Source: Planctomycetota bacterium (GTDB lineage: Bacteria > Planctomycetota > Planctomycetia > Planctomycetales > Planctomycetaceae). From it: 33,115 nucleotides of DNA. Both the position numbers and the translations under genes were made by a program. Each line of letters opens with the position of its first letter. Positions within the stretch are counted from its first letter, which is position 1. The stretch lies in assembly GCA_029977045.1 (NCBI GenBank), contig JAPOLP010000001.1, positions 1 to 33,115 of the forward strand, in the 5' to 3' direction. The notes beneath the pieces were generated by a model. It saw only the letters and a list, made by a program, of their open reading frames with translations, made no database searches and was not told the DNA's origin. This document shows, piece by piece, positions 2,483-24,803 of the stretch.

Positions 2483-2731
2483 GGCGGTTCCCTGTTGGTT
2501 CAAATCGGCATGGCAATCGCGAGTACTCAGAATCAAATCTCTGAGCACACCGTCGCGGCGGCAGGAGGATACAAGACACGAATCCCGTGCGGATCTCAGC
2601 GGATGAAAATTCGGCGCATTGACATCTGAATTCGTGTCGTACCGGTCTCGCACGAGTATCGAAAGCCCGCTGAGGGCTCACTGCTCTCGGCAGCCAGCCG
2701 CTTGGTTCAATCGGTGTGGGAATCTGTTTGA

Positions 2732-2758
2732 CAGACTGACTTGCAAGCCGTCAGTCTG
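2732..2758. promoter_or_regulatory. Perfect 9-bp inverted repeat in the divergent esterase/DUF1501 intergenic region
   Basis: CAGACTGAC (2732-2740), 9-nt spacer TTGCAAGCC, GTCAGTCTG (2750-2758). It lies about 70 nt upstream of the DUF1501 ATG (2830), so it is a candidate operator or 5' UTR hairpin. The function is only inferred. Confidence 0.3.
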
Positions 2759-2829
2759 CTCCGCGCCTGGCGTCAACTCATCCGCCGACGGCTCCGCTCA
2801 AATCACTGCCTGTTCCAGAGGTTTCCCCC

Positions 2830-4176: not shown

Positions 4177-4618
4177 CGTGTGATGAACTGAGATCGAAAA
4201 GCGACGGCGGATTGTGCTCGCCTGCCGGATGAGTCACCCGAGTCACAGTCGCGTCCATGCATAGCGACAGCGGCAAGGTCGTATTCCTGCACTGCCCGTG
4301 AGCTATATCTGAACTGCTCTGGTGTCGGTTAAGCACCAGATAATCAGCCTCATTGGCGTTATCGCCCAGGTCCCAATCCCGGACTGGCTTGATGACCGAT
4401 GTGCCCAAGCAACGGTGATACCGCCAATCAGGAGGCAAAATCAGCACGCCAATGTGCGACTGCTCCGTCTGGCACCGAAAATTCTTCAAGTTTCCCAGGG
4501 TGTCTGTCGATTTGCGTAAAGTGGGCACCGCACTGGGGACTTGAGTATGCGCATTTGCAGAGCAGGAAATACGTTCGGAAACAGCCGCCGGACGCTGTTT
4601 TCGTCGTTATCCACGAGC

Positions 4619-6085: not shown

Positions 6086-6190
6086 TATCTCGAAGCACAC
6101 CCCGGTGCTTTGAGACTGCTCCTGGCCGACTCATTCGATTCCCGCTGCTGGACGCCAATCTTCGGCGCCCGGTTACGATTGAGGTGTGAA

Positions 6191-9100
6191 ATGCGACTGC
6201 GCACGTGGCTTGACGGCGTATTGAACAGACTTTCCACGTGGTGGCAGCCCGCCCGTCGACGATTTCGCAGAAACTACCTGTCTGCAACTGCGCCTCAATA
6301 TCTTGAACCTCGCCTGTTACTGACAATCGACAATCTCGCCTCAATCAGTGGAGTCGTTTACGACGACCTGACCGACAATGGCCTGACTGGCGATGACATA
6401 CGACAGCAGAACGTGCAGGTCGAACTCTTTCAGGACGGCGGTAACGGGACGTTCGATTCCGGAACCGGAGACGACACGTCGCTGGGAACGCTGATGACAG
6501 ACGCTTCCGGCGAGTATCTGTTTGAACGGCTGCAGGCCGGCCGCTACTTCGTGCAGCAGAGTGCGATCGGCGGTCTCATTCAGCGGTCCGGCGACGACGT
6601 CGCCACGATTGACATCTCCGGCACAGACGCGGAAGGCGTGGTCGGGACAATCATCGACAGGTTCGATGATCCGGATCCGCCTCCAGATCCTCCACAGGGA
6701 GCGTCAGCCTCTTCCGCTGGCTCACTGATTGGCTCATCCTCAGTCAGCACGATGGAAGTCATCGGTGGCGAGCGAGACCTCACGATCAAACTGACGTCCG
6801 CCACTGGCGGCGTGTCGCTGAATGTCAACGCCTTCAATCTGGAACTGCTCGAATTCAATTCGAGCACCACCGGGGGAGGCCGAGGGACGGTCGTGTGGGA
6901 CGGCACTGACAGCGACCCACTGACGCTCGACCCAACGGGACTCGGAGGGATCGATCTGACCGGCGGCGGAGCCAGTGACGGCTTCCGACTGACAGCGGGG
7001 GTCGACCAGAACGGCGTGACCGTCACCGTGCGGGTTCACACCGACGCCACGAGTTACTCGGAAGGCACGTGGACCGTCACGAATACCGGCGGAGGCAGTA
7101 TCGACGCTCTGTACATCCCGTTTGCGGACTTTGTGCAGGGCGCCACGGCCACTGCTCAGGTCGATTTCGCGAACGTCGGCGCGATCGAAATGCAGATCAA
7201 CGGCGTGATCGCTGCCGACGGCCAGTTCGGTGAATTCTCGACCCTGGGCCCGAACATCACCACCGCCAACTTCGCGAACTTCCAGCCACTGAGCCTCGGC
7301 AACCTGGTCTGGGACGACATCAACAACAACGGCGTTTTTGATTCCGGCACCGAAAGCGGAATCCCGGATGTCACCGTCGAACTCTACGCGGACACCGACA
7401 GCAACGGAGCGTTTACTCCAGGCACCGACACGCTTCTGACATCGACCACGACCGACGGAAGCGGCGGGTACCTGTTCTCGAATCTGTTTCCCGGTGACTA
7501 CGTTCTGAGGATTCCTCAGTCAGAGTTTGAACCTGGAGGTGATCTGGAAGAACTCTCCGCGAGCAGCTCCGGCAACGATCCAGCTCCCGACCCCGACACA
7601 GATATCAACAACGACGACAACGGGACGCTGCTGGCAGGCCAGGGCGCAGTCACTCAGGCCGTAACGCTCCTGGCGAATTCTGAACCGGCTAACGACGGTG
7701 ACGCCGACACGGACAGCAACCTCGCCGTCGACTTCGGTTTCTTCCAGCCGATCGACCTGCAGATCACGAAGGCCGACTCCGCCGACCCGGTCAACGCTAG
7801 CGCAGCCTTCTTCTACACACTGACCGTCACGAATAACGGCCCCGAAACAGCAACCGGCGTCGTGGCCACTGACGTTCTCCCCGCCGGGCTCACTTACGTC
7901 TCCAGTTCAGTAACTCAGGGGACCGTCAGCGAATCTGGCGGCACCGTCACGGCTTCCATTGGAACGCTGGCACTCGGCGCATCAGCAAACGTCACGATCA
8001 ACGTCACCGCCGACGCCAGCACGTCGGGCACAGTGATCAACAACGCGTCAATCACTGGCGACCAATTCGATGTCGACGCGTCCAACAACACGACGAACGA
8101 ACCAACGACCGTGACTCCGGTCGTCGATCTTTCGATCACGAAATCAGACAACCCCGACCCGGTCGACTCCGGAGCAACGCTTGCCTACACGATCGTGGTG
8201 ACGAACAACGGGCCGTCGACGGCAACCGGGGTCGTCATGACCGACACGCTGCCGGCAGGCGTCACCTTCACGTCCGCCAGTACGACAAACGGTACCGTCG
8301 GCGCGGCAGGCAATATCGTGACGGCCAACCTGGGCACTCTGGCAAGCGGTGCTTCAGCCACCATCCTCGTCAACGTCCGAGTCGACGATTCGACGCTCGG
8401 TTCGATCCTCAACACTGCCGTTGTCACAGCGAACGAGACCGAACTCAACCTCGCGAACAATACGGCAAACGAGCCGACGCTGGTCAATCCGCTGGTGGAT
8501 GTGAGCGTCGTCAAGTCCGACGACATCGATCCGGTGAGTGCCGGTTCTCAGCTGACCTACACGCTGGTCGTCTCGAATTCCGGCCCCTCGACCGCCACTG
8601 GTGTCACTCTGACCGACATTCTGCCGGCGGGCGTCAGCTTCAGTTCCGGAAGCGCGACGCAGGGCTCCGTCAGTGAGTCGATGGGCACGATCACCGCGAC
8701 ACTCGGAACACTCGCGTCGGGCGACAGCGAAACCATCACCGTTGTCGTCGACGTCGCGGACACAACGTCGGGGACAATACTCAACACGGCTTCAGTCACG
8801 ACGAATGAGCCGGACTCGAATCTAGCGAATAATACGGCCAACGAGCCGACGACCGTTGTTCCGGTCATCGATCTTGAAGTCACCAAGTCAGACAACCCGG
8901 ACCCGGTGAACGCCGGCGGAACACTGACCTACACGGTGCTCGTCACGAACAACGGCCCGTCACCGGCGACGAACGTCATGCTGACCGACGCTCTGCCGGG
9001 CGAGGTTTCGTTTGATTCAGCGACTCCGAGCCAGGGGACCGTGTCCGAATCCGGTGGCACCGTTACGGCAAGTCTCGGCTCGCTCGCGAGCGGTGCGTCA

Positions 9101-12241: not shown

Positions 12242-15200
12242 TCAGCGTTCTTCAGGCCCAATCGAAGCAGTGTTCAGCAGAATGCGATTCGGGCCATTTA
12301 TTGCAGCGAAGATGTCGAGATCGCCATCACCGTCCAGGTCTGCAAGAGCCGCATGGAACGTTTTGGAGTCGTCCAGAAGACGCTGAGGATTGCTGAAGAC
12401 TCCCTTGCCGTCGTTTCGCCAGATCGCGCTGACACCTTTGTTGCAGGTGATGATGTCGGGATGCCCATCCTGATCGACGTCGCCCGGCACGATCGAAATC
12501 GATATTTCTGTGTCGAACAACTGGCCGCTGTCGGTGAAGTTTGCCTTTCCGTCGTTCAGCCAGACTCGATTGAAGCCCATGTTGGCGGCAACCGCGTCCA
12601 GGTCGCCGTCGCCATCGACATCGAACAATGCTCCGACCTCGCTGCAACTCCCGCCGAGTAGCTGGTCCGTGTTCTCGAAGTTGCCCTGGCCGTCGTTCAG
12701 GTAGACGCAGTTCGGCTCGAACTTGTCTTCGCCACCGTTGAAGACGAACAGGTCCTCGTCACCGTCGTTATCAAGATCGTCGGCGGCCACTCCGTAGCTG
12801 CTGAAGTCTCCGAGTGCCTGGCCGCTGTCGGTGAACATGCCTTTGCCGTCGTTCAAATACACGCGGTTCGCTTTGCCGTACCAGTAGTTGGCGACAACGG
12901 CGTCCAGATCGCCGTCGGCATCGAAATCACGCAGAACGATGTCCTTGGTGCCGGATGTTCCCAGCGACTGGCCGCTGTCCTGAAACACACCGCGGCCTTC
13001 GTTGATGTAGACCGCGTTTGGTTCGCCATTCACGTTTCCGATGAAAACATCGAGGTCACCGTCGCCGTCCAGATCGCCCAGTGCCGCACTATGACTTCGC
13101 GAGTTGCCGAGTCTCTGGCCGCTGTCGGTGAACACGCCTTTCCCGTCATTCCACCAGACAGTGTCAGGGGCCTTGTAGTTGGCGACGAAGGCGTCCTGAT
13201 CGCCATCGTCATCGAGATCCGCCATGAGGACTCGCGTGCTGAGACTGCCGCCGAGCAACTGCCCGGAGTCGGCGAACGTTCGCGGGGACGACGTCTCTGG
13301 CTGCTCCAGATTGACCCAACGCGCGGACGCGATCGTTCCGTGGTGGTCGTTGCCGGAGGCATCTTCAAGACGGTCACCCTGCCCCTCATCAAAGTGGTAC
13401 AGCGCCAGGGTCTGATCGTCAGATTCAAAGCTCACGTTAGGCTCGAAGTTGCCCGTGTAGCGAGCCGTCGACGAAAGCAGGAATTCATCCATCCAGCCAC
13501 GGAAGTGGAACTCCATCCTCTCTTCATGCGGATGCGCACCTAGCCACAGGCCTTTCGGCTCAGTCTCGTCCTTCATGGCAACTTGCCGATGACTCCACGC
13601 CTGAACGCCGTTGACAAAGAGACGTACATCATTCGAGCCGGACACGATCGCAATGTGAGCCCATTGGTCAGGAACGTACCTGAGCACTTCGGGTTTCAGA
13701 TTTGGCAGGGCATCCGCCCGTGACAGTCGCCAGTCCTTGTCGATCGCCGTGAACGTGTCGCCCTTGGCGGCGGCCGTCAGCTGCAGGACAGAGTCGCCCG
13801 ACAATTTTGCGATCACACCGACTGCTCGCATCTTTGCGGGACGCACCCAGGCTTCCATTGTCAGCGGTTCGTTGCCGGAGCGTGACAACGTCGGGATATC
13901 CACGTACGACCTGGAGCCGTCGAATTCCAGGGCTCCGCCCGTGTTTCGCACGTAATTCGGTCGGACGATCTGTGCGACCTGTGGCGGAGTCTTTGTCTGG
14001 CTGATCGTGACGAGAGTCTGTTCGTCTTTTGAGACGACAACCGTGTCGTCTTTCAGGCTCAGCTGATGGTCGCCGCCGCGCAGTTTCAGCTGATACTTCC
14101 CTGCTTCGACGCGAACCTGCCAGTCATTGTCAGGACCGAGCACCGCGACGACGTTCCCGTCCTGCTCCACCTCGACTTCAATGTTTGCGTCCTTCGCGGC
14201 CTCGACAATGACTTCACCGTACGGCGTTTGGATGCGGACGACCGAAAACGCGACTGCGGCGACCGCCAGCAGTGCCAGCCCGATTGCTGCAAAGCGGGTC
14301 CGACGAGTCCGGGATGTTCGCGGTCGAAGTTTCTCTGCAGAGCCAACCTCGTCTGAATCTGCTAAGGCCCGATCAAGTGCCTCAGCCAGTTCCGCTGCGG
14401 ACTGAAAACGATCGCCCCTGTCATGCGCCATTGCCTTCAGACAGACAGCCTCAAGCGAGGGCGAAACCGCGGCGATCTGCGACGGTGGGGCCGGACGTTC
14501 TCCCGAAGAGATCTGTCCCAGGACGGACAGGCCGGCGCCTTCAAATGGCCGGCGGTCGGTCAGCAACTGGTAGAGAATCACTCCCAGAGCATACACATCG
14601 GTTTGCGGTCCGATTTTGTCGTGAGCGGCTTCGACCTGTTCGGGGGCCATGTACGCGGGGCTGCCGATGATGACTCCGCTGTGCGTGAGTTCGGCTTCAG
14701 CGACCGCGTCGCGTGAGGCGAGGCCGAAGTCCATCACGACGGGCTCGCCCTTAGCGTTCAGAAGAATATTCGACGGCTTCAGGTCGCGGTGAATGATGCC
14801 TTCGTCGTGAGCGGCCTGAACCGCTCGCGCAGTCATCGCAACAACGCGCACAGCGTCCGCCTGTGACAGAGAAGCGCCGGTCAGACTCTGACCTTCGACA
14901 TAGGCCATCGTCAGGTAGTGCTGGCCGTCAATTTCACCGACGTCGTACACCGGGCACAGGTGCGGGTGATGCAGCGTGGCCATCGAACGGGCTTCGCGGC
15001 GGAACCGTTCAATCGCGATCTTGCGGATGTCGGGCCGGTCCTCGAAGCCGGGAAACTTGATCGCGATCTTTCGGTCGAGATCGGGATCGTAGGCGAGGTA
15101 CACGCTGCCCATGCCGCCTTGCCCCAGAAGTTGCCGCAGCTCGTAGCGGCCAAACCGGCATGGCAGTTCAACGCTGCTCTGCCCGGATGCTTCAGCCGGT

Positions 15201-15724
15201 CGGAATTTCGGCGTAACGATCGTCTCGTCCAGCGGCGAGTCGTCCGCCGGCGCCTCTGATTCAGCGTGAGGCAGCTCCAGCGATTCAGTATCGAAGTTCT
15301 CGATAGTGACCGTGGCTTCCGAACTCACCATGTCTGGCAGTCCGGCAAACACGTCCTCGACGATCGCCGTGTAAGTTAGAAAGCGGTTAAGAAACTCAGC
15401 AGCAGCAACCGGCTGGCCGGACCTTCTCTGAAAAGTCAGCAGCGTTTCCAGCAGCTCACGAAAGAGTGTCGGCTGCAGCGAGGCACCTGCCCGCTTCAGA
15501 CAGGTTTCGATGGACAGACGCTGTCCGGACGCCAGCGCACCCTCGAATTCAACGCAGAGTTCATCAATCTGCTCGATCTGATCCGTCGAGAGTTCGGCAT
15601 ACTCTTGATCGTTCATCTGAGTTCTGATTCGTCGCCTGTGGTCCTTTGTCTGCGTGTTCGGCGCAGAGCGGCTGTTTGACGCTGCCCCTTTAACACTTTC
15701 CGCGTCAAGAACCGGACAGCTCAT
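12242..15724 (-). CDS. Receptor Ser/Thr protein kinase with LamG-like and 7-blade FG-GAP/VCBS propeller ectodomain
   Basis: Hanks kinase motifs GQGGMGSVY, IAIK, HRDLKPSNIL, DFGLA and SPAYMAPE (about 14375-15145). Single TM helix FAAIGLALLAVAAVAFSVV (about 14237-14296). LamG/concanavalin-like body ALEFDGSRSYVDIP...WAHIAIV...FRGWMDEFLL (about 13445-13942). Seven DxDxDGxxD blades (about 12275-13282). The ATG at 15724 overlaps the sigma stop (ATGA); an alternative ATG at 15616 (MNDQEYAELS...) cannot be excluded. Stop TGA at 12244-12242. Confidence 0.9.
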   Translation of the reverse strand: MSCPVLDAESVKGAASNSRSAPNTQTKDHRRRIRTQMNDQEYAELSTDQIEQIDELCVEFEGALASGQRLSIETCLKRAGASLQPTLFRELLETLLTFQRRSGQPVAAAEFLNRFLTYTAIVEDVFAGLPDMVSSEATVTIENFDTESLELPHAESEAPADDSPLDETIVTPKFRPAEASGQSSVELPCRFGRYELRQLLGQGGMGSVYLAYDPDLDRKIAIKFPGFEDRPDIRKIAIERFRREARSMATLHHPHLCPVYDVGEIDGQHYLTMAYVEGQSLTGASLSQADAVRVVAMTARAVQAAHDEGIIHRDLKPSNILLNAKGEPVVMDFGLASRDAVAEAELTHSGVIIGSPAYMAPEQVEAAHDKIGPQTDVYALGVILYQLLTDRRPFEGAGLSVLGQISSGERPAPPSQIAAVSPSLEAVCLKAMAHDRGDRFQSAAELAEALDRALADSDEVGSAEKLRPRTSRTRRTRFAAIGLALLAVAAVAFSVVRIQTPYGEVIVEAAKDANIEVEVEQDGNVVAVLGPDNDWQVRVEAGKYQLKLRGGDHQLSLKDDTVVVSKDEQTLVTISQTKTPPQVAQIVRPNYVRNTGGALEFDGSRSYVDIPTLSRSGNEPLTMEAWVRPAKMRAVGVIAKLSGDSVLQLTAAAKGDTFTAIDKDWRLSRADALPNLKPEVLRYVPDQWAHIAIVSGSNDVRLFVNGVQAWSHRQVAMKDETEPKGLWLGAHPHEERMEFHFRGWMDEFLLSSTARYTGNFEPNVSFESDDQTLALYHFDEGQGDRLEDASGNDHHGTIASARWVNLEQPETSSPRTFADSGQLLGGSLSTRVLMADLDDDGDQDAFVANYKAPDTVWWNDGKGVFTDSGQRLGNSRSHSAALGDLDGDGDLDVFIGNVNGEPNAVYINEGRGVFQDSGQSLGTSGTKDIVLRDFDADGDLDAVVANYWYGKANRVYLNDGKGMFTDSGQALGDFSSYGVAADDLDNDGDEDLFVFNGGEDKFEPNCVYLNDGQGNFENTDQLLGGSCSEVGALFDVDGDGDLDAVAANMGFNRVWLNDGKANFTDSGQLFDTEISISIVPGDVDQDGHPDIITCNKGVSAIWRNDGKGVFSNPQRLLDDSKTFHAALADLDGDGDLDIFAAINGPNRILLNTASIGPEER

Positions 15725-16326
15725 GCCTGGTCTTCTTCGACGACCTGCCAGTTTCTGCGGATCAGCTCGACGCGGCGGCGGATCGTGCGGTCCGAGCAGC
15801 CGAGATGTTCAGCGATTTCGACGTCGGTGTAGCCCTCGATCTTGAGTCGGGCGATTTCCTGCAGCTCGGGGCCAAGCCCTTCGACGAGCTGTCCGCACAG
15901 ATCGACGAACTCGGCCGAGTACTCCAGAGTCGGCTCGCGAGCCGGCAGGCTGCCAATCACAGAGCGGTGGCTCGTCGTGATAAAAACGCTGTCAGTCGCG
16001 GTCCGACGAATGTCTCGCTGCTCGCGTTTTTCGTAGCGGTGCCGGTTGGAAATCTTGTTTGACGTGATCGTCAACAGCAGCCGCCACAGGCTGGTGCGGT
16101 CATTCAGATCGGGATACCGGCCCGCTGACACGCCGGCACACAAAGCGTGAAACGCACTTTGAGCGGCATCCTGCTCGTCGTAAGTCCGGGCAACTCGCCT
16201 GTTGAGCTTCTTCCTGGCGGCCTCATACAGCCGCTGTACGAAGTGCTCCCAGAGCTTTCGCGCAGACGACTCGTCGCCCTGCTGCAGGCCTTCAATCCAG
16301 ACCGAGACTGGTTCGTCGCTGTCCAT
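15721..16326 (-). CDS. ECF-type sigma-70 family RNA polymerase sigma factor (kinase-associated type)
   Basis: ORF 15721..16332 starts at a TTG; ATG at 16326 (MDSDEPVSVWIEGLQQGDESSARKLWEHF...). Sigma-2-like region DEQDAAQSAFHALCAGV...LWRLLLTITSNKISNRHR. Sigma-4 HTH LQEIARLKIEGYTDVEIAEHLGCSDRTIRRRVELIRRNW. No anti-sigma-like ORF is adjacent; the downstream gene is the kinase. Confidence 0.9.
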   Translation of the reverse strand: MDSDEPVSVWIEGLQQGDESSARKLWEHFVQRLYEAARKKLNRRVARTYDEQDAAQSAFHALCAGVSAGRYPDLNDRTSLWRLLLTITSNKISNRHRYEKREQRDIRRTATDSVFITTSHRSVIGSLPAREPTLEYSAEFVDLCGQLVEGLGPELQEIARLKIEGYTDVEIAEHLGCSDRTIRRRVELIRRNWQVVEEDQA

Positions 16327-16680
16327 AGGCAAATGCCGGCTCGAAATGGTGCGATGTCAGGCAAACGCGACAGCTTCATGGCTGCGCATGTCTCGCACGC
16401 TGATGGCGTGAGTCTGCCACATCATTGCGAAGCAATTTCGATGCGTCTGCGGTTCGTCTGTTCTGTGGACTGCCGCAGCGTTTTGCATCGCTGTTGCAGA
16501 GTGCCGCAGAAATCTGCGGAAATCCTGTCCGGGATCGGAGGCTGACGGTGTTTAGGGATTTGAGGCGGACTCGCTTGCGAGTCTCTGTTCAGGGATCGTT
16601 CAGATCTGTCAGTTCGCGCGGCAAGCGAGCGGCAGGCGTCACCGTCACCTGCATTTCCATTTTTTGATCCCGAGGAATCC
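16327..16680. promoter_or_regulatory. 354-bp divergent control region between the ECF sigma gene and the mega-adhesin
   Basis: TGCCGCAG occurs at 16471-16478 and 16502-16509. Palindrome CCGCAG-AAAT-CTGCGG at 16504-16519. Hairpin GACTCG-CTTG-CGAGTC at 16567-16582. A 9-bp inverted repeat CTCGCTTGC (16570-16578) / GCAAGCGAG (16621-16629). Phased GTTCAG, GTTCAG, GTCAG at 16587, 16598 and 16608. GAGGA sits 5-6 nt before the ATG at 16681. I could not call any promoter hexamers confidently. Confidence 0.4.
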
Positions 16681-18585
16681 ATGCTCCGAAAATCTTTCCG
16701 TATCCGCGATCTGATGGCCTCAAAATTCCGCAAGAACCGCCTGGCCCGGTCGCTGAAAAGCCGACGCCCACGCCGTCAGGCCGCCGCGGCCATGGAGAGC
16801 CTGGAAGCTCGCCAGCTACTGACCACACTGTCACTCAGTGATGCCTCGGTCACTGAAGGCGACAACCTCGAATTTGTCGTCTCACTCAGCAGCGCGGTCG
16901 CTCACGATACAGTCGTCAGCTACTCGACAGCTGGTGGTTCGGCCAACAGCAGCGATTACACCGCAGCCAGTGGCTCGATCACGATCTCGGCCGGCGACAC
17001 AAGCGGCACGATCACCGTCGCGACAACGGACGACAGCACGGTCGAACTCGACGAGACGCTCAGTCTGAACGTCACTGGAGTGTCGGGCACGAATGACGTC
17101 TCAATCAGCGACGGGACCGGTGCAGGCACGATTGAAAACGATGACGTTATGTCTGTCACCGTTGATGACGCGACCGTTTTGGAAGGTGGCAACCTGGAAT
17201 TCGCAGTCACGCTCAGCAATCCGGTCGATGTGGATACAGTCCTCACGTACTCAACCGGTGACGGTTCCGCAACGACCGCCGACAGCGACTACACCGGCCA
17301 GGCGGCTCAGACAATCACGATCTCTGCGGGCGACACCAGCGGCACAATCACAGTTGCCACGACGGACGACAACAAGGTCGAACTGGATGAGACTGTCAGC
17401 ATCTCGCTCGACGGCGTCGATGCGGGTGGCCGCGAAGCAGCAACCGCTGTCGGCGGAATCCTGTATCAGAACGACTTTGAATCGCCCAACGGGTTTGTCG
17501 ACAACACAGGACGCGACGTCAGCCTCCAGTCGGTGAACTCGCTCTACGGTCAGCCCGGCTTCCTGTTCCAGCAGATCTTCACCGTCGAGACACTCGAAAT
17601 TAATGGCACCGCAGCGTTTGGCGGCGGCTATCAGGATCCGTCCGGCACCGGCGGCAACTATGCCATCGGCATGCTCTCGCACGTTCAGAATGATCATCTC
17701 TCGCTGACGTTTGACGCGGGAACTAACGCGTTTCTGAACTTTGGAATCGATGTCTCGCATATCGATCTCGACGGTGTCGGCGGGCCGTTTGGCCCTGAGC
17801 CAGGCATCGCCCCTGTGTTCGACTTCCGTCTGTACGACAGCCCCAGCGGGAGCTTCAACATCTCCTCCCCGGGCACGCTGCTGGACTCGGCGCAGATCAC
17901 GGGCACCAGCTCCGCACGGAACACGTTTGACTGGACCAGTCATGTGCTCGGCCTGTCCACCGCAAGAAGCACGGACGGCAACGTCTCGCTGGTCGTCGAT
18001 CTGGTTCAGGGCGGATACGCGGCATTCGATAACCTGGTCGTCGCGGCATCGAATACCCAGGGGAGCCTCGACAATGGTGCCACAGGCACGATCCTCAATG
18101 ACGACAGCGCGACGGTTACGGTCGACGATGCGTCGGTGACCGAAGGCGGCAGCCTGCAATTCAACGTCTCGTTGAGCAACCCGGTCGATGTCGCCACGGT
18201 CATCAACTACTCGACGGCAGACGGTTCGGCCACGACGGCTGACAGCGACTACACCGGCGGCAGTGGCTCGATCACGATCGCTGCCGGTCTGACCAGCGGC
18301 ACGATCACTGTCGCCACGACGGACGACAATACCGTCGAACTGGACGAAGTGATGAGCCTTGACGTGGTGCTTGCGGACTCTAGTGACCGCGATGTGACAT
18401 TCCCGCAGGTCGGTGCCAACATCGTCTTTGAAGATACGTTCGACAGCGAGTCGGTCGGCGTCGGCTACACATCGCTTACCAACTGGGCCGTGACGTCCGG
18501 AAATGTGGATGTGATCGGAGACGGGTACCACAATATCTATCCGGGCAACGGGCGTTATCTCGACATGGATGGCTATGTCAATTGA
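16681..18585 (+). CDS. Calx-beta domain surface protein (N-terminal 634 codons of an interrupted mega-adhesin frame)
   Basis: ATG at 16681 with an upstream GAGGA. Leader MLRKSFRIRDLMASKFRKNRLARSLKSRRPRRQAAAAMESLEARQLLT. Three Calx-beta modules (e.g. VTVDDATVLEGGNLEFAVTLSNPVDVDTVLTYSTGDGSATTADSDYTG...ITISAGDTSGTITVATTDDNKVELDET). One unassigned lectin-like module. The first half of a DUF642-like jelly-roll (NWAVTSGNVDVIGDGYHNIYPGNGRYLDMDG) is cut by TGA at 18583-18585. Confidence 0.8.
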   Translation: MLRKSFRIRDLMASKFRKNRLARSLKSRRPRRQAAAAMESLEARQLLTTLSLSDASVTEGDNLEFVVSLSSAVAHDTVVSYSTAGGSANSSDYTAASGSITISAGDTSGTITVATTDDSTVELDETLSLNVTGVSGTNDVSISDGTGAGTIENDDVMSVTVDDATVLEGGNLEFAVTLSNPVDVDTVLTYSTGDGSATTADSDYTGQAAQTITISAGDTSGTITVATTDDNKVELDETVSISLDGVDAGGREAATAVGGILYQNDFESPNGFVDNTGRDVSLQSVNSLYGQPGFLFQQIFTVETLEINGTAAFGGGYQDPSGTGGNYAIGMLSHVQNDHLSLTFDAGTNAFLNFGIDVSHIDLDGVGGPFGPEPGIAPVFDFRLYDSPSGSFNISSPGTLLDSAQITGTSSARNTFDWTSHVLGLSTARSTDGNVSLVVDLVQGGYAAFDNLVVAASNTQGSLDNGATGTILNDDSATVTVDDASVTEGGSLQFNVSLSNPVDVATVINYSTADGSATTADSDYTGGSGSITIAAGLTSGTITVATTDDNTVELDEVMSLDVVLADSSDRDVTFPQVGANIVFEDTFDSESVGVGYTSLTNWAVTSGNVDVIGDGYHNIYPGNGRYLDMDGYVN

Positions 18586-18819
18586 ACGATCCAGTCTGAT
18601 CCACTGACACTCAGTCCTGGCGTCTACGAACTGTCATTTGAAATCGGCAACAACACGTTTGGGGGCAACGGCCTGCTGGTTTCGCTTGGTTCCACATTTG
18701 TCGAACACTTCCCTGCGAGTTCGACGCTCACTCCGATCGTTCGAACGATTACCGTCACAGAGGCGACAACTGCCTCACTGGTCTTTGAAGAAACGGGGCC
18801 GTCTGACAAGGGCGGCAGT

Positions 18820-21800
18820 GTGCTGGATGATGTGCGGCTCATTCAGGTTGCGGGCGCGGGAAGCCTCACCAGCCAGAGCACCGGCACGATCGAGAACGAC
18901 GACAGCGCGACGGTTTCGATCGGTGATGCATCGGTCGTCGAAGGCGGTAACCTGGAGTTTAACGTCTCGCTGAGTAACCCGGTCGATGTCGCCACGGTCA
19001 TCAACTACTCGACCGCAGACGGCACTGCCACAACGGCAGACAGCGACTACACCGGCGGCAGTGGCTCGATCACTATCCCTGCTGGCCAGACCAGCGGCAC
19101 GATTTCCGTCGCCACGACCGGCGACAACACCGTCGAACTGGACGAAACGCTGAGTCTGAATCTGACGGCGGTCAGTGCCAGCGGACGCACCGTCTCGATC
19201 GACGACGGCACGGGTACAGGCACGATCGAGGACAATGACAGTGCAAGCCTTTCGATCGATGACGTGGTCATCACGGAAGGCGACAGCGGGACGACGACGG
19301 CAACCTTCACCGTAACCCTGAACAACGCTGTGGATACCGGCGTGAGCGTGAAGTTCGACGTGGCCGACGGCACTGCCACTGAGGCGGACGGTGATTACTC
19401 CGCAGGCAACTCCTTCGGCACCGGCGGTCTCGTCTTCGGTGGAGTAGACGCAGCACGTGGCGGTGCAACGAGCATGGCGGATGGCTACCTGATGGCGAAT
19501 ATCCGCGCGGATATCTCGGCCAATTCGCCAGCTGCGACCTTCACCAGTTCCAACACGCTGACACCGGCGTACCTCGACACTATTGATGTGCTGTTCGTGT
19601 CGAGCTGGCCGACAGTCGTGACGCTGAGTGCCGCGGAGCAGGCAGCCGTGGCGGACTTCGTACAGAACGGCGGCGGGACCATCATCTGGGGCGAGAACGA
19701 CGGGTGGGCGGGGGGAGCATCCGACATCTCGAACGAAAGCCTGATCGATCCGTTCCTGATGGATATCACAGGCACGCTGGGCGGCGGTCAGACTGTGACG
19801 GTAACTGACCCTTCCGCTCATATCGTCACCGATGGTCCCTTCGGAACCGTGACTTCGTTCGGACTCAGTTGGCCCGGATGGTTCAACAACCTTGGCCCGT
19901 ACGCCACCACGCTGGGAACGCTGAATGCCAACGGGCAGTCGGCTCTGGCAGTGATCGATCCCGGGGCGATTAATCCCGGCAGCGGTGGCGTGGTTCTGAT
20001 TTCCGATGGCAACGGCACCAGCGGTGCTCCACAGGTACGGACCCTGATTCTCAACTCGCTGTCCTTTGTGTCCACATCAGCTCCGGACACGTTGAACTTC
20101 TCCGGCGCAGCGGGCGAGACGCAAACTATCGAGGTGGAAATCAACGGCGACAACACGGTGGAGTTGGACGAGAACTTCTTCGTCAATCTTTCCAACCTGG
20201 ATGCGAATGGCCGAAACGTTACGCTGGCTGATAGCCAGGGCGAAGGCACGATCGGGAACGACGACAGCACGACGGTTTCGATCGGCGATGCATCTGTCGT
20301 GGAAGGCGGCAACCTGGAGTTCAACGTCACGCTGAGCAACCCGGTCGATGTCGACACAGTCATCAACTACTCGACGGCTGATGGCACTGCCACGACGGCA
20401 GACAATGACTATACCGGACAGACCGGCGTGCCGCTGACTCCGGCGAACATCACCGCCAGCACATCGCTCGCACCGCTCGGAAGCTTCACTGTCAACGAGA
20501 TCGTTGACGGGACCACAGCGGATGGGTCGCCGTTTAATGGTTTTGCGACCAATACGAATGTCGAATCGGGGACGATTACGCTGGACCTCGACGGAGACTT
20601 CGATCTGACGAAGTTCACCATCTGGAATGACATCAATGTCGGAGGCCAAGGGATCGAGAACTTCCGACTCGATTTCTACGCCTCAGCAAATGCCCTGATT
20701 TCGTCAACGGCGACACTGACAGCCGTCTCACAGGTCGCGGCTCAGGAGTATGCCTTCCCGACTGTCTCCGGTGTCAGCCGCGTCGATCTGGTGGTGCTGA
20801 GTTCCTACGACGGTGGCGGATACAACCGCATCGAAATCCGTGAAGTGATGCTGGAAGGTACTTCGAGCGTCACTGGGCTGACGATCCCGGCCGGTCAGAC
20901 CAGCGGCACGATCACTGTCGCCACGACGGACGACAACAAGGTCGAACTCGATGAGACGCTCGACGTAATTCTCGGCACTGTTGACGCCAGCAATCGTGAC
21001 GTCACCGCAGGTGCTGTTGGCGGAGTCGCGTTTTCTGAGTTCGATGCGTTCGACAGTACGACCGCAACGCAGTTTTTGACCGGTTCACTCGGCGACGTCC
21101 CGTTTTCAATGACGTTTGACGACGGCAATGTCGGAGCCTGGGGCGTCCGTGGCCGATACTCCACGTTCGACAACACATCCACTTCCTTCAACACTTCGAA
21201 CTTCACGCCGGCAACAAGCGGCCTCGACATGCTTTCCGGGGTCCATTTCGGTCAGAACGTCGGCGGAACGCTGACGATCGAGTTCGAGGCTCCTGTCGAG
21301 AATCCCACATTCCACTTCGTGCAGCTGGATGGAGCGGCTTGGGACTTCGGCCCGACGCCGGGCTTCACGTCGCTCACGAAACTCAGCGGAACGAGCGACA
21401 TCACCATTTCCGGCTCACTGTTGCGTGACAACAACGGCGCAAACGACCCCGGAATCTACGGCAGCATCCAGCTCGACGGCACGTTCTCAACCGTCGTCGT
21501 TTCGCTGGTTCCAATCACAACACGCGGTGACGGCTACTGCTTCCAGATGTCCGGCGCTGCAGCTGCGAGAGGCTCAGCTACCGGCACGATCTTGAACGAC
21601 GACTACGCTCCAGTTGCCAACAACGACACGAACCAGATTGACGAGCTGTTTGGGGTGGTTGATTCGACGAGCAACAACATCTCGGGCAACGTGCTGCTGG
21701 ATGTCGATCATCTCGATGGCTATGCAGACGTCGCCGACACCGATGCCGATAACGGAACGGCCGGACTTTCGGTCGCGGACGTTGACGGCAATGCAATCTC

Positions 21801-23658
21801 CGGAGCGACGAACATCGCCGGTGCGTACGGCACGCTGACGATGAACTCCGACGGCAGCTACACGTACAACCTGAACGATGCACTGGCTCTGCTGGAAGAC
21901 CTGGACGACGGCCAGACGCTGACCGAATCGTTCTCGTATACGGCGACCGACGGTGCCAACGGCAGCAATGACGCCACGCTGACGATCACCATCAACGGCA
22001 CGACGGACAACACTCCGCCGGTGGCGAATGACGACAGCGTTTCCACTGACGAAGACAACGCGGTGACGTTCGGCGTGCTCGGCAACGACACGGACGAGCA
22101 GAACAACCTCGTGGCGTCTCTGACAACGGTCCTGACATCACCGTCGGCTGGAGTCCTGACGAACCACAACGACGGCACGTTCTCGTTCGATCCGAACGGT
22201 GACTTCGAGTCCCTGCCGGCTGGGGCGTCGGCGACCGTCGGCTTCGATTACCAGATCGAAGACAGCTTCGGCGAAACCGACGACGCGACGGTTATCGTCA
22301 CGGTCTACGGCGTGAACGATGCGGCATCGATTAGCGGCGACAAGGTCGGCACGCTGACGGAAGACGAAGCGGGCGACAGCGGCGTCATGGCGGTTAGCGA
22401 CGTCGACGATGGCGAAGCGATCTTCCAGTCACAGACTGACGCGGAAGGCGACTACGGTGACTTCAGCATCGATGCTGCTGGCAACTGGTCGTACGCACGC
22501 ACGGCTGACCTGCAATGGCTGGCCGTCGGTGAATCGGTCACGGATAGCTTCACAGTGGTCTCGTTCGACGGCACGGCTACCGCGACCGTGACGATCACGA
22601 TCACCGGCGAGAACGACGCGCCGACGATCGACACGCTCGTCTCCAGCAATGACGACTTCTGTGAAGCGTCCGCTGATGGCACCGTGTCGGTCAGCGGCAC
22701 GTTCAGCGACGTCGACGCTTCGGACACTCACTCGGCAACGGTCGACTGGGGTGATGGCACTGTCGAATCTCTGACAGTGAACCAGCTCGCCGACACACTG
22801 GCTGGCGGTCACACGTACGGCAGCGGCGGCATCTACACGGTCACTGTGACGATCGACGACGGCAACGGCGGAACGGATGTCGAATCCGTGACGGCAGTTG
22901 TCTCCGGTGCGGCGGTCATCGACGGCACGCTGTACCTGATCGGCACGCATCGCGATGACGACTTCACCGTCAAGCTGGTCAATAAGAAAGACCCGCAGAT
23001 CAAAGTCGAATACGAACTGAACCAGATTGGTGGTTCGGACGGCGGCAGCGATGGCGGGTCGGACGGTGGCTCCGATGGCGGAAGCGACGAGGTCGTGCAG
23101 TACTTCGACCCGTCGAGCGTGGATCAGATCGTCGCGTACCTGTGCGACGGCGACGACCACCTCAACATCGGCGAAGGCGGCTCCGACGGCGGCCTGGACG
23201 TCCCATCTCTCGTGTTTGCCGGAGCCGGTGATGACCACATCACCACAGGTTCGGGTAACGACATCGTCTTCGGGGGAGATGGCAACGACCACATCAACGG
23301 TCGCGGCGGCAACGACATCCTCTCTGGCGGAGCCGGCGACGACAAACTCGACGGCGGCAAAGGCCTGGACGTTCTGATCGGCGGCATCGGCAAAGATCAC
23401 CTCAAGGGCGACCACGACGATGACCTGCTGATCGGCGACTCGGCGGCCAACGAAGAGGACGCAGCCGCTCTGGAAGCCGCCATTGCCGCCTGGGTCAGCG
23501 GCGACCTCGAAACTGCCCTGCTGAACCTCGGCGACATCACCGACGACGGCGACAAGGACAAACTCCAGGGCGGCAAGGACGACGACGAAGTCAAAGCCAG
23601 TGACAGCGACAAGGACACTGAAAAACAAGGAAGAAAAGGACGGCGAGGACAAGGGTAA
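18820..23658 (+). CDS. Calx-beta / discoidin-like / VCBS / cadherin-like / PKD / RTX repeat protein (C-terminal part of the same frame)
   Basis: Same frame as 16681..18585, and open from 18586; the first canonical start is GTG at 18820, which lies mid-domain. It contains Calx-beta modules; VCBS-type modules (GTLTMNSDGSYTYNLND...DGQTLTESFSYTATDG, DYGDFSIDAAGNWSYAR...VTDSFTVVSFDG); a cadherin-like module (PPVANDDSVSTDEDNAVTFGVLGNDTD); a PKD-like module (HSATVDWGDGTVE...GGHTYGSGGIYTVTVTIDDGNGG); and RTX nonapeptides (GAGDDHITTGSGNDIVFGGDGNDHINGRGGNDILSGGAGDDKLDGGKG). Stop TAA at 23656-23658. Confidence 0.75.
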   Translation: MLDDVRLIQVAGAGSLTSQSTGTIENDDSATVSIGDASVVEGGNLEFNVSLSNPVDVATVINYSTADGTATTADSDYTGGSGSITIPAGQTSGTISVATTGDNTVELDETLSLNLTAVSASGRTVSIDDGTGTGTIEDNDSASLSIDDVVITEGDSGTTTATFTVTLNNAVDTGVSVKFDVADGTATEADGDYSAGNSFGTGGLVFGGVDAARGGATSMADGYLMANIRADISANSPAATFTSSNTLTPAYLDTIDVLFVSSWPTVVTLSAAEQAAVADFVQNGGGTIIWGENDGWAGGASDISNESLIDPFLMDITGTLGGGQTVTVTDPSAHIVTDGPFGTVTSFGLSWPGWFNNLGPYATTLGTLNANGQSALAVIDPGAINPGSGGVVLISDGNGTSGAPQVRTLILNSLSFVSTSAPDTLNFSGAAGETQTIEVEINGDNTVELDENFFVNLSNLDANGRNVTLADSQGEGTIGNDDSTTVSIGDASVVEGGNLEFNVTLSNPVDVDTVINYSTADGTATTADNDYTGQTGVPLTPANITASTSLAPLGSFTVNEIVDGTTADGSPFNGFATNTNVESGTITLDLDGDFDLTKFTIWNDINVGGQGIENFRLDFYASANALISSTATLTAVSQVAAQEYAFPTVSGVSRVDLVVLSSYDGGGYNRIEIREVMLEGTSSVTGLTIPAGQTSGTITVATTDDNKVELDETLDVILGTVDASNRDVTAGAVGGVAFSEFDAFDSTTATQFLTGSLGDVPFSMTFDDGNVGAWGVRGRYSTFDNTSTSFNTSNFTPATSGLDMLSGVHFGQNVGGTLTIEFEAPVENPTFHFVQLDGAAWDFGPTPGFTSLTKLSGTSDITISGSLLRDNNGANDPGIYGSIQLDGTFSTVVVSLVPITTRGDGYCFQMSGAAAARGSATGTILNDDYAPVANNDTNQIDELFGVVDSTSNNISGNVLLDVDHLDGYADVADTDADNGTAGLSVADVDGNAISGATNIAGAYGTLTMNSDGSYTYNLNDALALLEDLDDGQTLTESFSYTATDGANGSNDATLTITINGTTDNTPPVANDDSVSTDEDNAVTFGVLGNDTDEQNNLVASLTTVLTSPSAGVLTNHNDGTFSFDPNGDFESLPAGASATVGFDYQIEDSFGETDDATVIVTVYGVNDAASISGDKVGTLTEDEAGDSGVMAVSDVDDGEAIFQSQTDAEGDYGDFSIDAAGNWSYARTADLQWLAVGESVTDSFTVVSFDGTATATVTITITGENDAPTIDTLVSSNDDFCEASADGTVSVSGTFSDVDASDTHSATVDWGDGTVESLTVNQLADTLAGGHTYGSGGIYTVTVTIDDGNGGTDVESVTAVVSGAAVIDGTLYLIGTHRDDDFTVKLVNKKDPQIKVEYELNQIGGSDGGSDGGSDGGSDGGSDEVVQYFDPSSVDQIVAYLCDGDDHLNIGEGGSDGGLDVPSLVFAGAGDDHITTGSGNDIVFGGDGNDHINGRGGNDILSGGAGDDKLDGGKGLDVLIGGIGKDHLKGDHDDDLLIGDSAANEEDAAALEAAIAAWVSGDLETALLNLGDITDDGDKDKLQGGKDDDEVKASDSDKDTEKQGRKGRRGQG
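23029..23088 (+). repeat. Five tandem GGSD tetrapeptide units (12-nt period) inside the mega-adhesin
   Basis: GGTGGTTCGGAC GGCGGCAGCGAT GGCGGGTCGGAC GGTGGCTCCGAT GGCGGAAGCGAC. The peptide is identical in all five units, but the codons differ. Confidence 0.9.
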
Positions 23659-23757
23659 GGGCAAAAAGAAGGGCAAGAATAAGTAGCCCAGAGGCACCGC
23701 ACCTCGTGCGAACGCCGCAGTAACAAAGCAGAGACTGTCGGCCATCCGATCGACGGG

Positions 23758-23791
23758 ACAGCCCGGTGAGATTTCTCGCCGGGCTGTTTTT
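23758..23791 (+). terminator. Rho-independent terminator of the mega-adhesin gene
   Basis: ACAGCCCGGTGAG (23758-23770), loop ATTT, CTCGCCGGGCTGT (23775-23787). This is a 13-bp stem with one G-U pair, followed by TTTT (23788-23791). It lies 100 nt after the stop, in a convergent intergenic region. Confidence 0.75.
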
Positions 23792-23810
23792 GTGTCTGGA
23801 GAAGGCAGCG

Positions 23811-24803
23811 TCAGTCTCGCTGACGCTCCGCCAGATGCTCATCCAGGAAAGACTCGGCTGCCTTGTACGCAGCGGCAATGTCGTCGGGGTTACCTCCGAC
23901 CAGACCGTGTTCGCCATTCCCGATGCTGATCAACCGGTGTCGCACTTTGTGATTTTGAAACTCGCGGGCCATCATCACGGACTGTTCGTGCGGCACGTCA
24001 GTATCAGTCGTGCCGTGAATCATGAGCGTTGGTGCCCAGTCGACCGACACATTCTTCACTGGCATGAAGGGGAAGAATTGTTCGGCTTCCTTGTGTGGAT
24101 CCCAGCCGCTGACGTTCTTTGGCCACAGGCCTGTCTGGCGGCAGTACACATAGAACAATCCGCCGTCGCCCTTTCGGTCTCGCGAATCAGAAATCGGAGG
24201 CCCGCTGACCTGCTGCCAGGCTTCGTTCCTTGTCGGCTTCACACGATTGTGTCGCGGATGAGGACTCGGACTGCTGTACCACGGCCCGACCAGGTCTCCG
24301 TAGCCCCAGAAGGCGACCAGTGCCTGAGGACGCGGCTTCACCAGGTAACCGGTTGCCAGCGTCAGGTAGCCACCTGCCGAGCCGCCCGTCACCGCAATCC
24401 TGTCGGTGTCAAAATGAAACCGCCGGGCTCCTTCACCGCGAATCCAGCGAAACGCGTCCTGAACGTCTTCGAGGATCAGCGGTAGTTTCGTTTCGGGTGC
24501 GAGACGGTAGTCGATCGACACCAGTGCGAAACCTCGCCCCTTCGCGTAATCGCGGACGCGACCACTGATTCCTTCCCGATGTCCGTTGATCAAAGCGCCA
24601 CCGTGAATCCAGACAACGACCGGGACAGGTTTCTCACCGGGCGGTCGATAAACGTCAGCCAGAATTTTGAGTTCGCCGACCATCTTGTATGCAACGGTCG
24701 ACCGGGCGAAGTCAGCATCCTGTGCGATGCCACTCGTACCCGCTGCCAAAACGCACGACATGCCAACCGAAAAAAGCAATGCTGATTCAATCGAGCGTGC
24801 CAT
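23811..24803 (-). CDS. Alpha/beta hydrolase (esterase/lipase, HGG + GxSxG type), exported
   Basis: ORF 23811..24818 starts at a TTG. ATG at 24803 with an upstream GGGAG. Signal-like MARSIESALLFSVGMSCVLAAGTSGIAQD. Oxyanion motif VVWIHGGALINGH, nucleophile elbow VTGGSAGGY, and probable Asp/His in HGTTDTDVP and NGEHGL. Confidence 0.85.
   Translation of the reverse strand: MARSIESALLFSVGMSCVLAAGTSGIAQDADFARSTVAYKMVGELKILADVYRPPGEKPVPVVVWIHGGALINGHREGISGRVRDYAKGRGFALVSIDYRLAPETKLPLILEDVQDAFRWIRGEGARRFHFDTDRIAVTGGSAGGYLTLATGYLVKPRPQALVAFWGYGDLVGPWYSSPSPHPRHNRVKPTRNEAWQQVSGPPISDSRDRKGDGGLFYVYCRQTGLWPKNVSGWDPHKEAEQFFPFMPVKNVSVDWAPTLMIHGTTDTDVPHEQSVMMAREFQNHKVRHRLISIGNGEHGLVGGNPDDIAAAYKAAESFLDEHLAERQRD

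Follow-up and report, generated by a model that had tools for sequence, protein, structure and literature searches.

A single in-frame TGA within a jelly-roll domain interrupts a giant Calx-beta gene of a planctomycete

Results

One reading frame with one internal stop

The window (the whole stretch of 33,115 nucleotides that we analysed, from a Planctomycetota bacterium) has a composition of 60% GC and carries planctomycete hallmark families. When positions 16681-23658 are translated, the 2,326 codons include a single internal stop, at codon 635, besides the terminal TAA: the ORFs 16681..18585 and 18586..23658 share a common frame of 2,325 codons. A reading made from the sequence alone, without database searches, had described a single TGA splitting a frame of about this length, and the translation bears it out. 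The features of the locus are listed in Table 1. Besides the ECF sigma factor and the Ser/Thr kinase, the neighbours encode esterases, DUF1501 and PSD1 proteins and a nitrilase-type hydrolase. The 12 other genes that we checked in the window are intact, and no tRNA genes were found in it. The ORFs 17251..18531(-), 18775..19821(-), 22429..23745(-) and 18638..18973(+) have no Pfam matches and were treated as high-GC shadow ORFs.

Table 1. Features of the interrupted gene and its upstream neighbours (positions in the window)
Feature	Position	Strand	Evidence or remark
Ser/Thr kinase gene, next after the ECF sigma factor gene	12242-15724		Pfam Pkinase
ECF sigma factor gene, divergently transcribed, possible regulator	15721..16326	-	Pfam Sigma70_ECF
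5' part, 634 codons	16681..18582	+	translation; Pfam Calx-beta 1.3e-25
Leader motif AMESLEARQLLT, residues 37-48, LExRxLL-type	16789..16824	+	PF07595 Planc_extracel, weak
Calx-beta module 5' of the jelly roll	18081..18359	+	direct repeat of 18879-19157, 85% identical
Beta-jelly-roll domain, ~150 residues, bisected by the stop	18415..18849	+	six-frame hmmsearch, A2 profile, 185 bits
In-frame TGA, followed by A	18583..18585	+	Gly/Ala column, one residue ahead of a beta strand
3' part, 1,690 codons and TAA	18586..23658	+	Pfam and NCBIfam matches
Calx-beta module 3' of the jelly roll	18879..19157	+	direct repeat partner of 18081-18359
VCBS / bacterial cadherin-like / Big_9 repeats and PKD	21973..22893	+	residues 1130-1436, counted in the downstream translation
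RTX calcium-binding nonapeptide repeats	23269..23376	+	Pfam HemolysinCabind 3e-10, 40.3 bits (cut-off 23)

The 5' part begins with a basic leader, which is followed by two Calx-beta domains, a beta domain of about 215 residues, a third Calx-beta domain and the 5 N-terminal strands of a jelly roll. Its 634-aa product exists as a called protein in NCBI, and the start at 16681 was also chosen in an independent gene call on a contig from another sample (L080). The match of PF07595 to the leader motif (15 bits, E 0.02) lies below the gathering score of 25.5; motifs of the same type are also found in the neighbouring giant gene (YLEPRLLLT) and in the homologous locus of a related species (contig L084, LEDRQMLTT). 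The 3' part is made of the remainder of the jelly roll, more Calx-beta, a weak ThuA-like region and a Calx-beta domain with a nested insert, and then of another beta domain, repeats of the VCBS/cadherin-like kind, a PKD domain and RTX repeats. Recognisable Pfam domains are present on either side of the stop; Calx-beta, whose cut-off is 27 bits, scores 90.1 and 85.7 bits (3 + 3 stretches). The VCBS, cadherin, PKD and RTX domains all map 3' of the stop, in agreement with the earlier expectation that a truncated 634-aa product would lack them. The two Calx-beta modules which flank the jelly roll share an exact repeat of 38 nt (18178-18215 and 18976-19013); the stop itself sits in unique DNA, outside the repeats. 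In our view 16681-23658 is one gene, which would encode a secreted or surface multi-domain planctomycete protein of about 2,325 residues; its domain content suggests a surface or adhesive role, and the label "adhesin" is to be taken in that sense.

The stop bisects a jelly-roll domain

We built a family profile from seven homologues of the jelly roll, leaving the window sequence out. This profile matches across the stop as one hit (196 bits, profile positions 33-183), and the N and C halves, scored separately, obtain 94 bits each. The curated NCBIfam model TIGR04362 likewise runs across the stop: the whole domain aligns with profile positions 20-156 of 157, the N half with 19-58 and the C half with 71-156. 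In the alignment with the homologues, invariant family residues are found on either side of the stop, whose position corresponds to A98 of homologue P0001, just ahead of the strand 99-102 (alignment and AlphaFold model). As modelled by AlphaFold, the closest homologue folds into an all-beta sandwich that has 5 strands ahead of the stop position and 9 beyond it and that matches the CBM4, CBM16, CBM22, CBM6 and MAM jelly rolls. A six-frame hmmsearch with the A2 profile found no second copy of the domain elsewhere in the window.

The window domain scores 54.3 bits (E 1.8e-14) against TIGR04362, under the curated cut-off of 120 bits, and the best homologue obtains 65.6 bits against the same cut-off. 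Judged from these scores, the domain is related to choice-of-anchor C and is not a member of it by the curated criterion. It has no match in Pfam (for DUF642, PF04862, none at E<=0.1), and DUF642 is matched by one of the seven homologues, with E 6.2e-4. The jelly roll is distantly related to choice-of-anchor C and to DUF642, with both of which it shares the beta-sandwich fold. The sequence-only reading had guessed a DUF642-like jelly-roll or lectin module: this holds at the level of the fold, and it is only loosely right at the level of the family, as TIGR04362 is the best named relative and remains sub-cut-off. Most relatives are secreted proteins of about 200 aa with PEP-CTERM-type tails, whereas the jelly roll of the window sits between Calx-beta modules of a giant protein, a minority arrangement among family members.

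The codon at the stop position

The codons around the stop read gtc aat TGA acg atc. We aligned 183 copies of the homologous domain: the column of the stop holds G in 126 (69%), A in 39 (21%), S in 6, V in 4, D in 2, L in 1 and a gap in 5, so that a residue is present in 178 of them, and neither Trp nor Cys occurs. Among the 38 uninterrupted copies which belong to proteins of at least 1,000 aa, 20 have Gly in this column and 6 have Ala. GGA, which accounts for 39 of the 288 Gly codons of the interrupted gene, is the sole Gly codon one step from a stop, as a single G>T change turns it into TGA. Because the column holds mostly Gly or Ala and never Trp or Cys, the original codon was likely GGA. 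TGG or GGA had both been proposed for this site; the frequency of Gly favours the second, and the complete absence of Trp speaks against the first.

The argument draws solely on paralogous and family copies, because an orthologue was not found. A scan of genome contigs with a 486-aa query centred on the junction returned only Calx-beta or partial matches and no orthologue. In a whole-protein search the Calx-beta giants dominate, with a best local coverage of at most 39% and no full-length orthologue; in a BLAST of all fetched sequences the C-terminal module alone is shared, again with no full-length orthologue. The word-indexed protein search also missed the window's own 634-aa product, which is present in the collection, so that its negative results carry little weight. 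A weak match to the Ocean-VII RNA at 18577-18613(-), of 15.5 bits against a cut-off of 53.5, was regarded as due to chance.

The sequence beyond the stop

The frame of the gene has no stop between 18586 and 23655, while the other two frames have 58 each (1,689 codons), so that chance is very far from explaining the open frame; the absence of further stops, pointed out before for 18586..18819, thus extends to the whole of the downstream part. GC3 is 0.748 downstream of the stop versus 0.733 upstream, and the downstream value is as in other genes. The first in-frame start after the stop is the GTG at 18820, as the sequence-only reading had it, followed by a GTG at 18832, the next one coming only at 19264. 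The 78 codons 18586-18819 are free of starts and yet encode conserved family residues. No leader appears in the translation of the downstream part, again as first read, unlike the window's other giant gene, which has its own ATG and leader. Promoter and terminator matches around the downstream part are at chance level only, and for 11 candidate starts of the downstream ORF (two of them tried as V and as M) no gene-caller product is on record. One frame, a stop within one fold and a 3' part with neither leader nor start of its own support the view, already taken from the sequence alone, that this is a single gene.

Independent copies of the locus

Five independent short-read contigs, covering about 12.8 kb, show 0 indels with respect to the window. 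With respect to a 99.5% identical sister strain we counted 42 differences: 27 of the codons concerned are synonymous and 12 nonsynonymous, and 28 of the 40 in-gene differences fall at third positions. With respect to four near-identical samples there is a single difference, a third-position transition. The organism was traced in these four other samples, which correspond to SRR27540971, SRR21518229 and the runs behind ERZ27257200 and ERZ27275788, through the neighbouring sigma factor, whose product (P0275, 201 aa) is identical in all of them. The contigs retrieved from them end at 18207 or earlier and thus hold no copy of 18583; the furthest-reaching (Logan L080) ends at 18207, at a k=31 break exactly 30 nt into the repeat of 38 nt. 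Two scans of JGI metagenomes for the junction, with exact and with codon-degenerate DNA patterns, gave 0 matches. The stop-terminated product of the predicted next unitig (18300-19005) is not on record; neither is the 509-aa fragment of L080, the one cut contig-end product that was checked, and such negative results are weak evidence.

Discussion

A probable recent nonsense mutation

The sequence-only reading had put forward a nonsense mutation, an error or low-level readthrough. We find this to be the right set and rank the first highest: with a probability of about 0.7, the locus carries a recent nonsense mutation in a fast-evolving giant gene of the Calx-beta/VCBS/PKD/RTX kind, with at most a trace of leak at the UGA. 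A single G>T transversion would have changed a conserved glycine codon, GGA, into TGA within the choice-of-anchor-C-like jelly roll. Translation would then stop after codon 634, giving a short product made of the leader, three Calx-beta domains and a stump of 5 strands out of 14 that would be unable to fold, and lacking the remainder of the jelly roll together with all that follows it as far as the RTX C-terminus. The downstream 5 kb would not be an independent gene; it would owe its still pristine state to the recency of the event, which would amount to a strain polymorphism, and full-length protein would be made solely when near-cognate decoding leaks, unprogrammed, at UGA-A. That no second lesions are present sets a loose bound on the recency. 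The direction and recency of the mutation, and the reality of the stop as opposed to a base error, are inferred for a stop that is known from one assembly. The locus is fast-evolving between related planctomycetes: in the related species represented by L084 the leader is kept and a different passenger is carried.

Premature-stop polymorphisms and young pseudogenes of bacterial genes have been surveyed (Belinky et al. 2021, PMC7918605; Feng et al. 2022, PMC9122581). These cases resemble ours in having a single in-frame stop in an ORF that is otherwise intact, with a downstream sequence that is still coding-like; ours, too, appears to be a population polymorphism, and some low-level leak may occur. 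Our case differs from them in that the stop is known from one genome and that a gene of about 7 kb enlarges the mutational target. Multi-kilobase repeat genes are large mutational targets, as this one illustrates. In an annotation, the two ORFs are best entered as a single interrupted gene (a pseudogene or an allele with a premature stop), rather than as one protein of 634 aa and an orphan. If the stop is real and polymorphic, it would be another example of the loss of a giant surface protein at the level of strains.

A possible base error

The same sequence would result from an error of base calling, consensus or polishing, the true codon at 18583-18585 being a sense codon, probably GGA, of an intact gene. 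We hold this to be unlikely, though it is the alternative that we take most seriously. One base change is enough for it, the rest of the interrupted gene is intact, and at least one base of the window (15808) differs from the four other samples; because no retrieved independent sequence reaches 18583, where the T comes from one assembly, such an error keeps some probability. Against it, the comparison with the independent contigs reveals no indels and only substitutions which look like polymorphism, the other genes examined are intact, and the site lies in unique sequence, outside any collapsed repeat. Moreover, a random substitution would rarely create a stop: 455 of the 20,916 possible substitutions in the interrupted gene do so (2.2%). 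Most likely, the locus displays a gene disruption of an ordinary kind at an early stage; an error of base calling is the less likely reading, and neither amounts to a new mechanism.

Readthrough and recoding of the UGA as improbable alternatives

In a second alternative, which we find improbable, readthrough would be functional or regulated: the stop would be kept, and a few of the ribosomes, in a proportion that may depend on conditions, would insert an amino acid there (near-cognate Trp, or another), so that full-length protein is made beside an abundant form of 634 residues. UGA followed by A is said, from work of Poole, Brown and Tate in 1995 on E. coli, to be among the weaker termination contexts, and the 1,690 codons beyond the stop are preserved without a flaw. 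The residue usually inserted by near-cognate decoding at UGA is Trp, which occurs in 0 of 183 homologous copies at this small-residue Gly/Ala column inside a fold, and the short product would break off with half a domain. The 80 nt past the stop fold no better than shuffled sequences (z +0.83) and have no Rfam match, the fourth base, A, is the sole mildly permissive element of the context, the natural stops of the window are mostly TGA too, and no orthologue was found in the databases searched which could support conservation. In favour of this reading, PMC7918605 reports that in-frame stops under purifying selection are widespread among bacteria, and according to PMC9122581 low levels of protein can still come from disrupted genes. 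A more elaborate version, in which the TGA is maintained as an expression valve on a surface protein of 2,325 residues that is very costly to make, giving mostly the short leader-plus-Calx-beta form, rare readthrough of UGA-A giving the full adhesin and reversion to GGA giving on/off heterogeneity, is slightly more doubtful still. The locus would be of broader interest solely if readthrough were conserved and functional.

Recoding of the UGA, either as selenocysteine or under a variant code (code 4, UGA=Trp; code 25, UGA=Gly), is effectively refuted. The stop column is mostly Gly, as code 25 would insert; however, TGA terminates 6 of the 13 other genes of the window, and we therefore take the genetic code to be standard. 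One of these genes encodes a BBP7 porin, whose Pfam match reaches position 348 of 350 of the profile, two residues short of the TGA. The known lineages with code 4 and code 25 are unlike a genome of such GC content and with such hallmark families. As for selenocysteine, no SECIS-like hairpin was seen (MFE -13.5 kcal/mol versus a shuffle mean of -16.1), and Cys occupies the site in 0 of 183 copies. Finally, the idea of two separate genes, of which the second would begin at GTG 18820 or further on, is already contradicted: gene callers do give a product for the first ORF and the ORF listing has an ORF of 1,612 codons from 18820, but the split falls inside one domain whose conserved residues continue through the start-less codons, a start at 18820 would drop 8 of the 9 remaining strands, the leader which both giant genes of the window possess is missing from the second part, and the signals and recorded products are as poor as described above.

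Relation to known giant proteins

The window gene shares Calx-beta, Cadherin_4, Big_9, PKD_4 and HemolysinCabind with the giant Calx-beta/VCBS/RTX surface proteins of Planctomycetota and other bacteria, all above the Pfam cut-offs, and is also above the cut-off for the NCBIfam VCBS_repeat. The best database matches are Calx-beta proteins of 1,300-4,000 aa, many of them from Pirellulales, Planctomycetaceae and Gimesia. It scores 50 bits with the BapA/Bap/LapF model NF045619 (cut-off 180) and 43 bits with the RTX toxin model (cut-off 1000), and is below the cut-off in both cases. No type I secretion genes (ABC, MFP, TolC) are found among the neighbours within 33 kb. C-terminal RTX nonapeptide repeats are common to the window gene and to the LapA/BapA-type adhesins, but its N-terminus is a planctomycete-type leader and not a LapA retention module. 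The known giant proteins share only the C-terminal 350-540 residues of the window gene, a stretch that shows 46-59% identity with the ends of P0112, P0029 and P0054.

One frame with a single stop codon

The sequence-only reading had described one adhesin frame split by a single TGA, and translation bears this out: positions 16681-23658 of the forward strand give 2,326 codons with one internal stop at 18583-18585 (flanking codons gtc aat TGA acg atc) and a terminal TAA. Each of the two other frames of 18586-23655 has 58 stops in 1,689 codons, while the frame of the gene has none; the interrupted open frame far exceeds chance expectation. The GC content at third codon positions is 0.733 upstream of the stop and 0.748 downstream, and 0.74-0.76 in the other genes of the window. 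The first in-frame ATG, GTG or TTG after the stop is indeed the GTG at 18820, followed by the GTG at 18832 and then by nothing until 19264.

Features of the window discussed in the text
Feature	Position	Strand	Remarks
BBP7 putative beta-barrel porin gene	4541-6085	+	ends in TGA
Second giant gene, 2,016 aa	6191-12241	+	10 DUF11 repeats, SdrD_B, DUF7507; own ATG and LEPRLLLT leader
ECF sigma factor (PF07638) and 1,160-aa Ser/Thr kinase with Laminin_G_3 and FG-GAP repeats	12242-16326	-	divergent, adjoin the interrupted gene
5' ORF	16681..18585	+	634 codons, ATG start, ends at TGA
Beta-jelly-roll domain	18415-18849	+	seven-homologue profile; sole copy in window
Open stretch after the stop	18586..23658	+	in frame with 16681..18585

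The 5' ORF begins with a basic stretch and SLEARQLLT, weakly matching PF07595 (Planc_extracel). According to Pfam and NCBIfam, three Calx-beta stretches precede the stop, and more follow it before bacterial cadherin-like/Big_9/VCBS repeats, a PKD domain and RTX nonapeptides; this VCBS/cadherin/PKD/RTX end is 46-59% conserved with other giant proteins. The Calx-beta module at 20241-20969 (+) appears to hold a nested insert of about 149 residues (VPLTPANITAST…EVMLEGTSS), which has no Pfam match and resembles another small beta domain; the halves of the module's DNA repeat lie 609 nt apart rather than 162.

The stop cuts one fold

The approximately 150 residues around the stop have no Pfam match. 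A database search with this stretch returned seven homologues (42-62% identity, mostly free-standing proteins of about 210 aa), in all of which F, D, F, W, G, DV, G, P, NG, YLD and DG are invariant before the stop and I, G, Y, LSF, N, F, G, G, D, V and L after it. A profile built from the seven, the window being left out, gives one match of 196 bits over profile positions 33-183, and each half of the domain scores 94 bits. Independently, the NCBIfam choice-of-anchor C model TIGR04362 aligns over positions 20-156/157 with the whole domain, 19-58 with the N half and 71-156 with the C half, at 54 bits for the domain, under its cut-off of 120 bits. All seven homologues match TIGR04362; one matches DUF642 (E 6e-4).

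The AlphaFold2 model of the closest homologue is an all-beta sandwich with pLDDT above 90 through the domain, and its Foldseek matches are CBM4-2, CBM16, CBM22, CBM6, CBM61 and MAM jelly rolls (E about 5e-6 and higher); the domain is like the jelly-roll fold of CBM4, CBM16 and MAM. In this predicted structure the stop aligns to A98, the residue just ahead of strand 99-102; five strands precede this point and nine follow, so that the stop cuts one single fold. Together with the single profile match across the stop, this agrees with the claim that the stop lies inside a fold; the label "DUF642-like" stands for the fold and holds only loosely for the family.

The family is large: searching exhaustively by profile gave 5,237 cluster representatives at E<=1e-3, 375 of them at E<=1e-30. 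No Pfam model covers the family, and its matches to choice-of-anchor C stay below the cut-off. Its best members are mostly proteins of about 200 aa that carry a signal peptide and, in many cases, a PEP-CTERM-type tail; among the 150 best members listed, some copies form part of proteins of 1,000-3,400 aa.

The codon that the stop probably replaced

We aligned 183 domain copies, from the best 150 of the 5,237 proteins and the seven homologues. The stop column holds Gly 126 times, Ala 39, Ser 6, Val 4, Asp 2, Leu 1 and a gap 5 times; Trp and Cys occur in none of the 183 copies. None of the 38 copies that lie within proteins of 1,000 aa or more is interrupted; 20 of them have Gly in this column and 6 have Ala. 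The sequence-only reading had proposed an orthologue comparison, with TGG or GGA as examples of the sense codon. No full-length orthologue was found in the collections searched, and the family column gives Gly or Ala, never Trp. As a true orthologue was missing, we infer the ancestral GGA from the family members. Among the Gly codons, GGA (39 of 288 in the gene) alone can become a stop by one substitution, and the simplest history would be a change from GGA to TGA through one G>T transversion.

A real allele or a base error

We consider the stop to be a real nonsense allele, with a probability of about 0.7. The window is an NCBI contig in full (33,115 nt), and its organism is also present in independent assemblies. 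A contig from ENA is 99.52% identical to window positions 1-8820 (42 substitutions, 0 indels); its in-gene differences are 27 synonymous and 12 nonsynonymous codon changes, 28 of 40 at third positions. Four contigs from four samples (Logan SRR27540971 and SRR21518229; ENA ERZ27257200 and ERZ27275788) match 14247-18207 or sub-ranges of it, and the sole base separating them from the window is 15808, a third-position transition common to all four, so that the window stands for a strain slightly distinct from the other sampled populations. This base belongs to the ECF sigma gene (minus strand, 15721-16326) and is T in the window and C in 4/4 contigs. The differences look biological. Wherever a comparison is possible, the window thus proves accurate; this, the intact state of the other genes examined and the position of the stop in unique DNA between repeats favour a real allele.

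A base error at the stop is improbable, though it is the strongest of the alternatives. None of the independent contigs retrieved reaches 18583. The one that comes nearest, a Logan contig, ends at 18207, where it has run exactly 30 nt (k-1) into an exact repeat of 38 nt between Calx-beta modules; this is a break in the k=31 graph. Such repeats between modules are exact over 38 nt (18178-18215 = 18976-19013) and 39 nt (18291-18329 = 20898-20936), which explains why k=31 assemblies break up the gene and why independent sequence over the stop is scarce. JGI metagenomes scanned with exact and codon-degenerate junction patterns gave no match, and the product predicted for the unitig next after the end of the nearest contig is not on record. 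The 634-aa product of the window is on record as a singleton cluster, but the word-indexed protein search missed it, so that near-identical negatives are weak; the 509-aa cut fragment at that contig's end, the one such product checked, is absent from the protein collection.

Consequences of the stop

Under the standard code, translation reaches UGA at codon 635, within the domain. The main product would thus have 634 residues, comprising the leader, two Calx-beta stretches, an unassigned beta domain, a third Calx-beta stretch and an unfoldable stump of five strands, and would lack the remaining 1,690 or so residues, including the VCBS/cadherin/PKD/RTX end. Work in E. coli rates UGA followed by A as a rather weak terminator, and traces of the full-length protein could therefore conceivably arise; Trp, the residue usually inserted by near-cognate decoding, would be bulky at a Gly/Ala position. 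Maintained or functional readthrough is quite unlikely, and readthrough kept as an expression valve on the giant protein, the sole reading of wider interest, slightly more so.

Nonsense changes make up 2.2% of the substitutions possible in this 7-kb gene, and the window diverges from independent contigs by 0.03-0.5%; a premature stop is hence unsurprising if selection on the gene is weak. In-frame stops persisting at population level are documented in bacteria (PMC7918605), as are low expression from disrupted genes (PMC9122581) and giant genes in planctomycete genomes (e.g. PMC5177795). Event and gene are both of known kinds, and the interruption is biologically ordinary.

Two genes or recoding

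Two separate genes at 16681-23658 have a negligible chance. The downstream part has no leader, as the sequence-only reading had noted, whereas the 5' ORF carries its basic stretch with SLEARQLLT and the other giant gene its own ATG and YLEPRLLLT; promoter-like and terminator-like matches over 16000-24500 are at shuffle level. With one fold cut by the stop, a single gene is supported. Hidden genes on other strands or frames were rejected, as none of the antisense and off-frame ORFs there matches a family.

Equally negligible is recoding of UGA, even though code 25 would insert Gly, the commonest residue at the stop column. TGA is the natural terminator of 6 of the 13 other genes of the window, and the Pfam match of the BBP7 gene stops two residues ahead of its TGA; codes 4 and 25 are therefore excluded. 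The 80 nt 3' of the stop form a poorer fold than their shuffled versions do (z +0.83). Rfam gave no match at gathering thresholds and locally one sub-threshold match, taken as chance, and the window has no tRNA gene.

The locus and its neighbourhood

In a related species (sigma factor 91% identical), the leader MLRNSFRIRDLMAAKFRK…LEDRQMLTT is kept at the same divergent position with a different passenger. This locus (L084:1-627, minus strand, a contig of JGI sample 3300072910) was compared with window 16681-16830; it is divergent from the sigma gene, and the protein body after LEDRQMLTT is wholly different and not Calx-beta. Judged from these sequences, the locus is one that turns over fast, and the passenger seems to have been swapped between close relatives.

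The neighbouring families (PSCyt1/PSCyt2/PSD1, DUF1501, BBP7, ECF sigma factor with Ser/Thr kinase) are typical of planctomycetes. The sigma factor and the kinase may be a regulatory pair for the surface-protein locus, and the pairing of porin and giant protein may be functional. The BBP7 gene and the second giant gene are in the same frame with 0 stops between them, and the latter contains tandem units of 372 nt.
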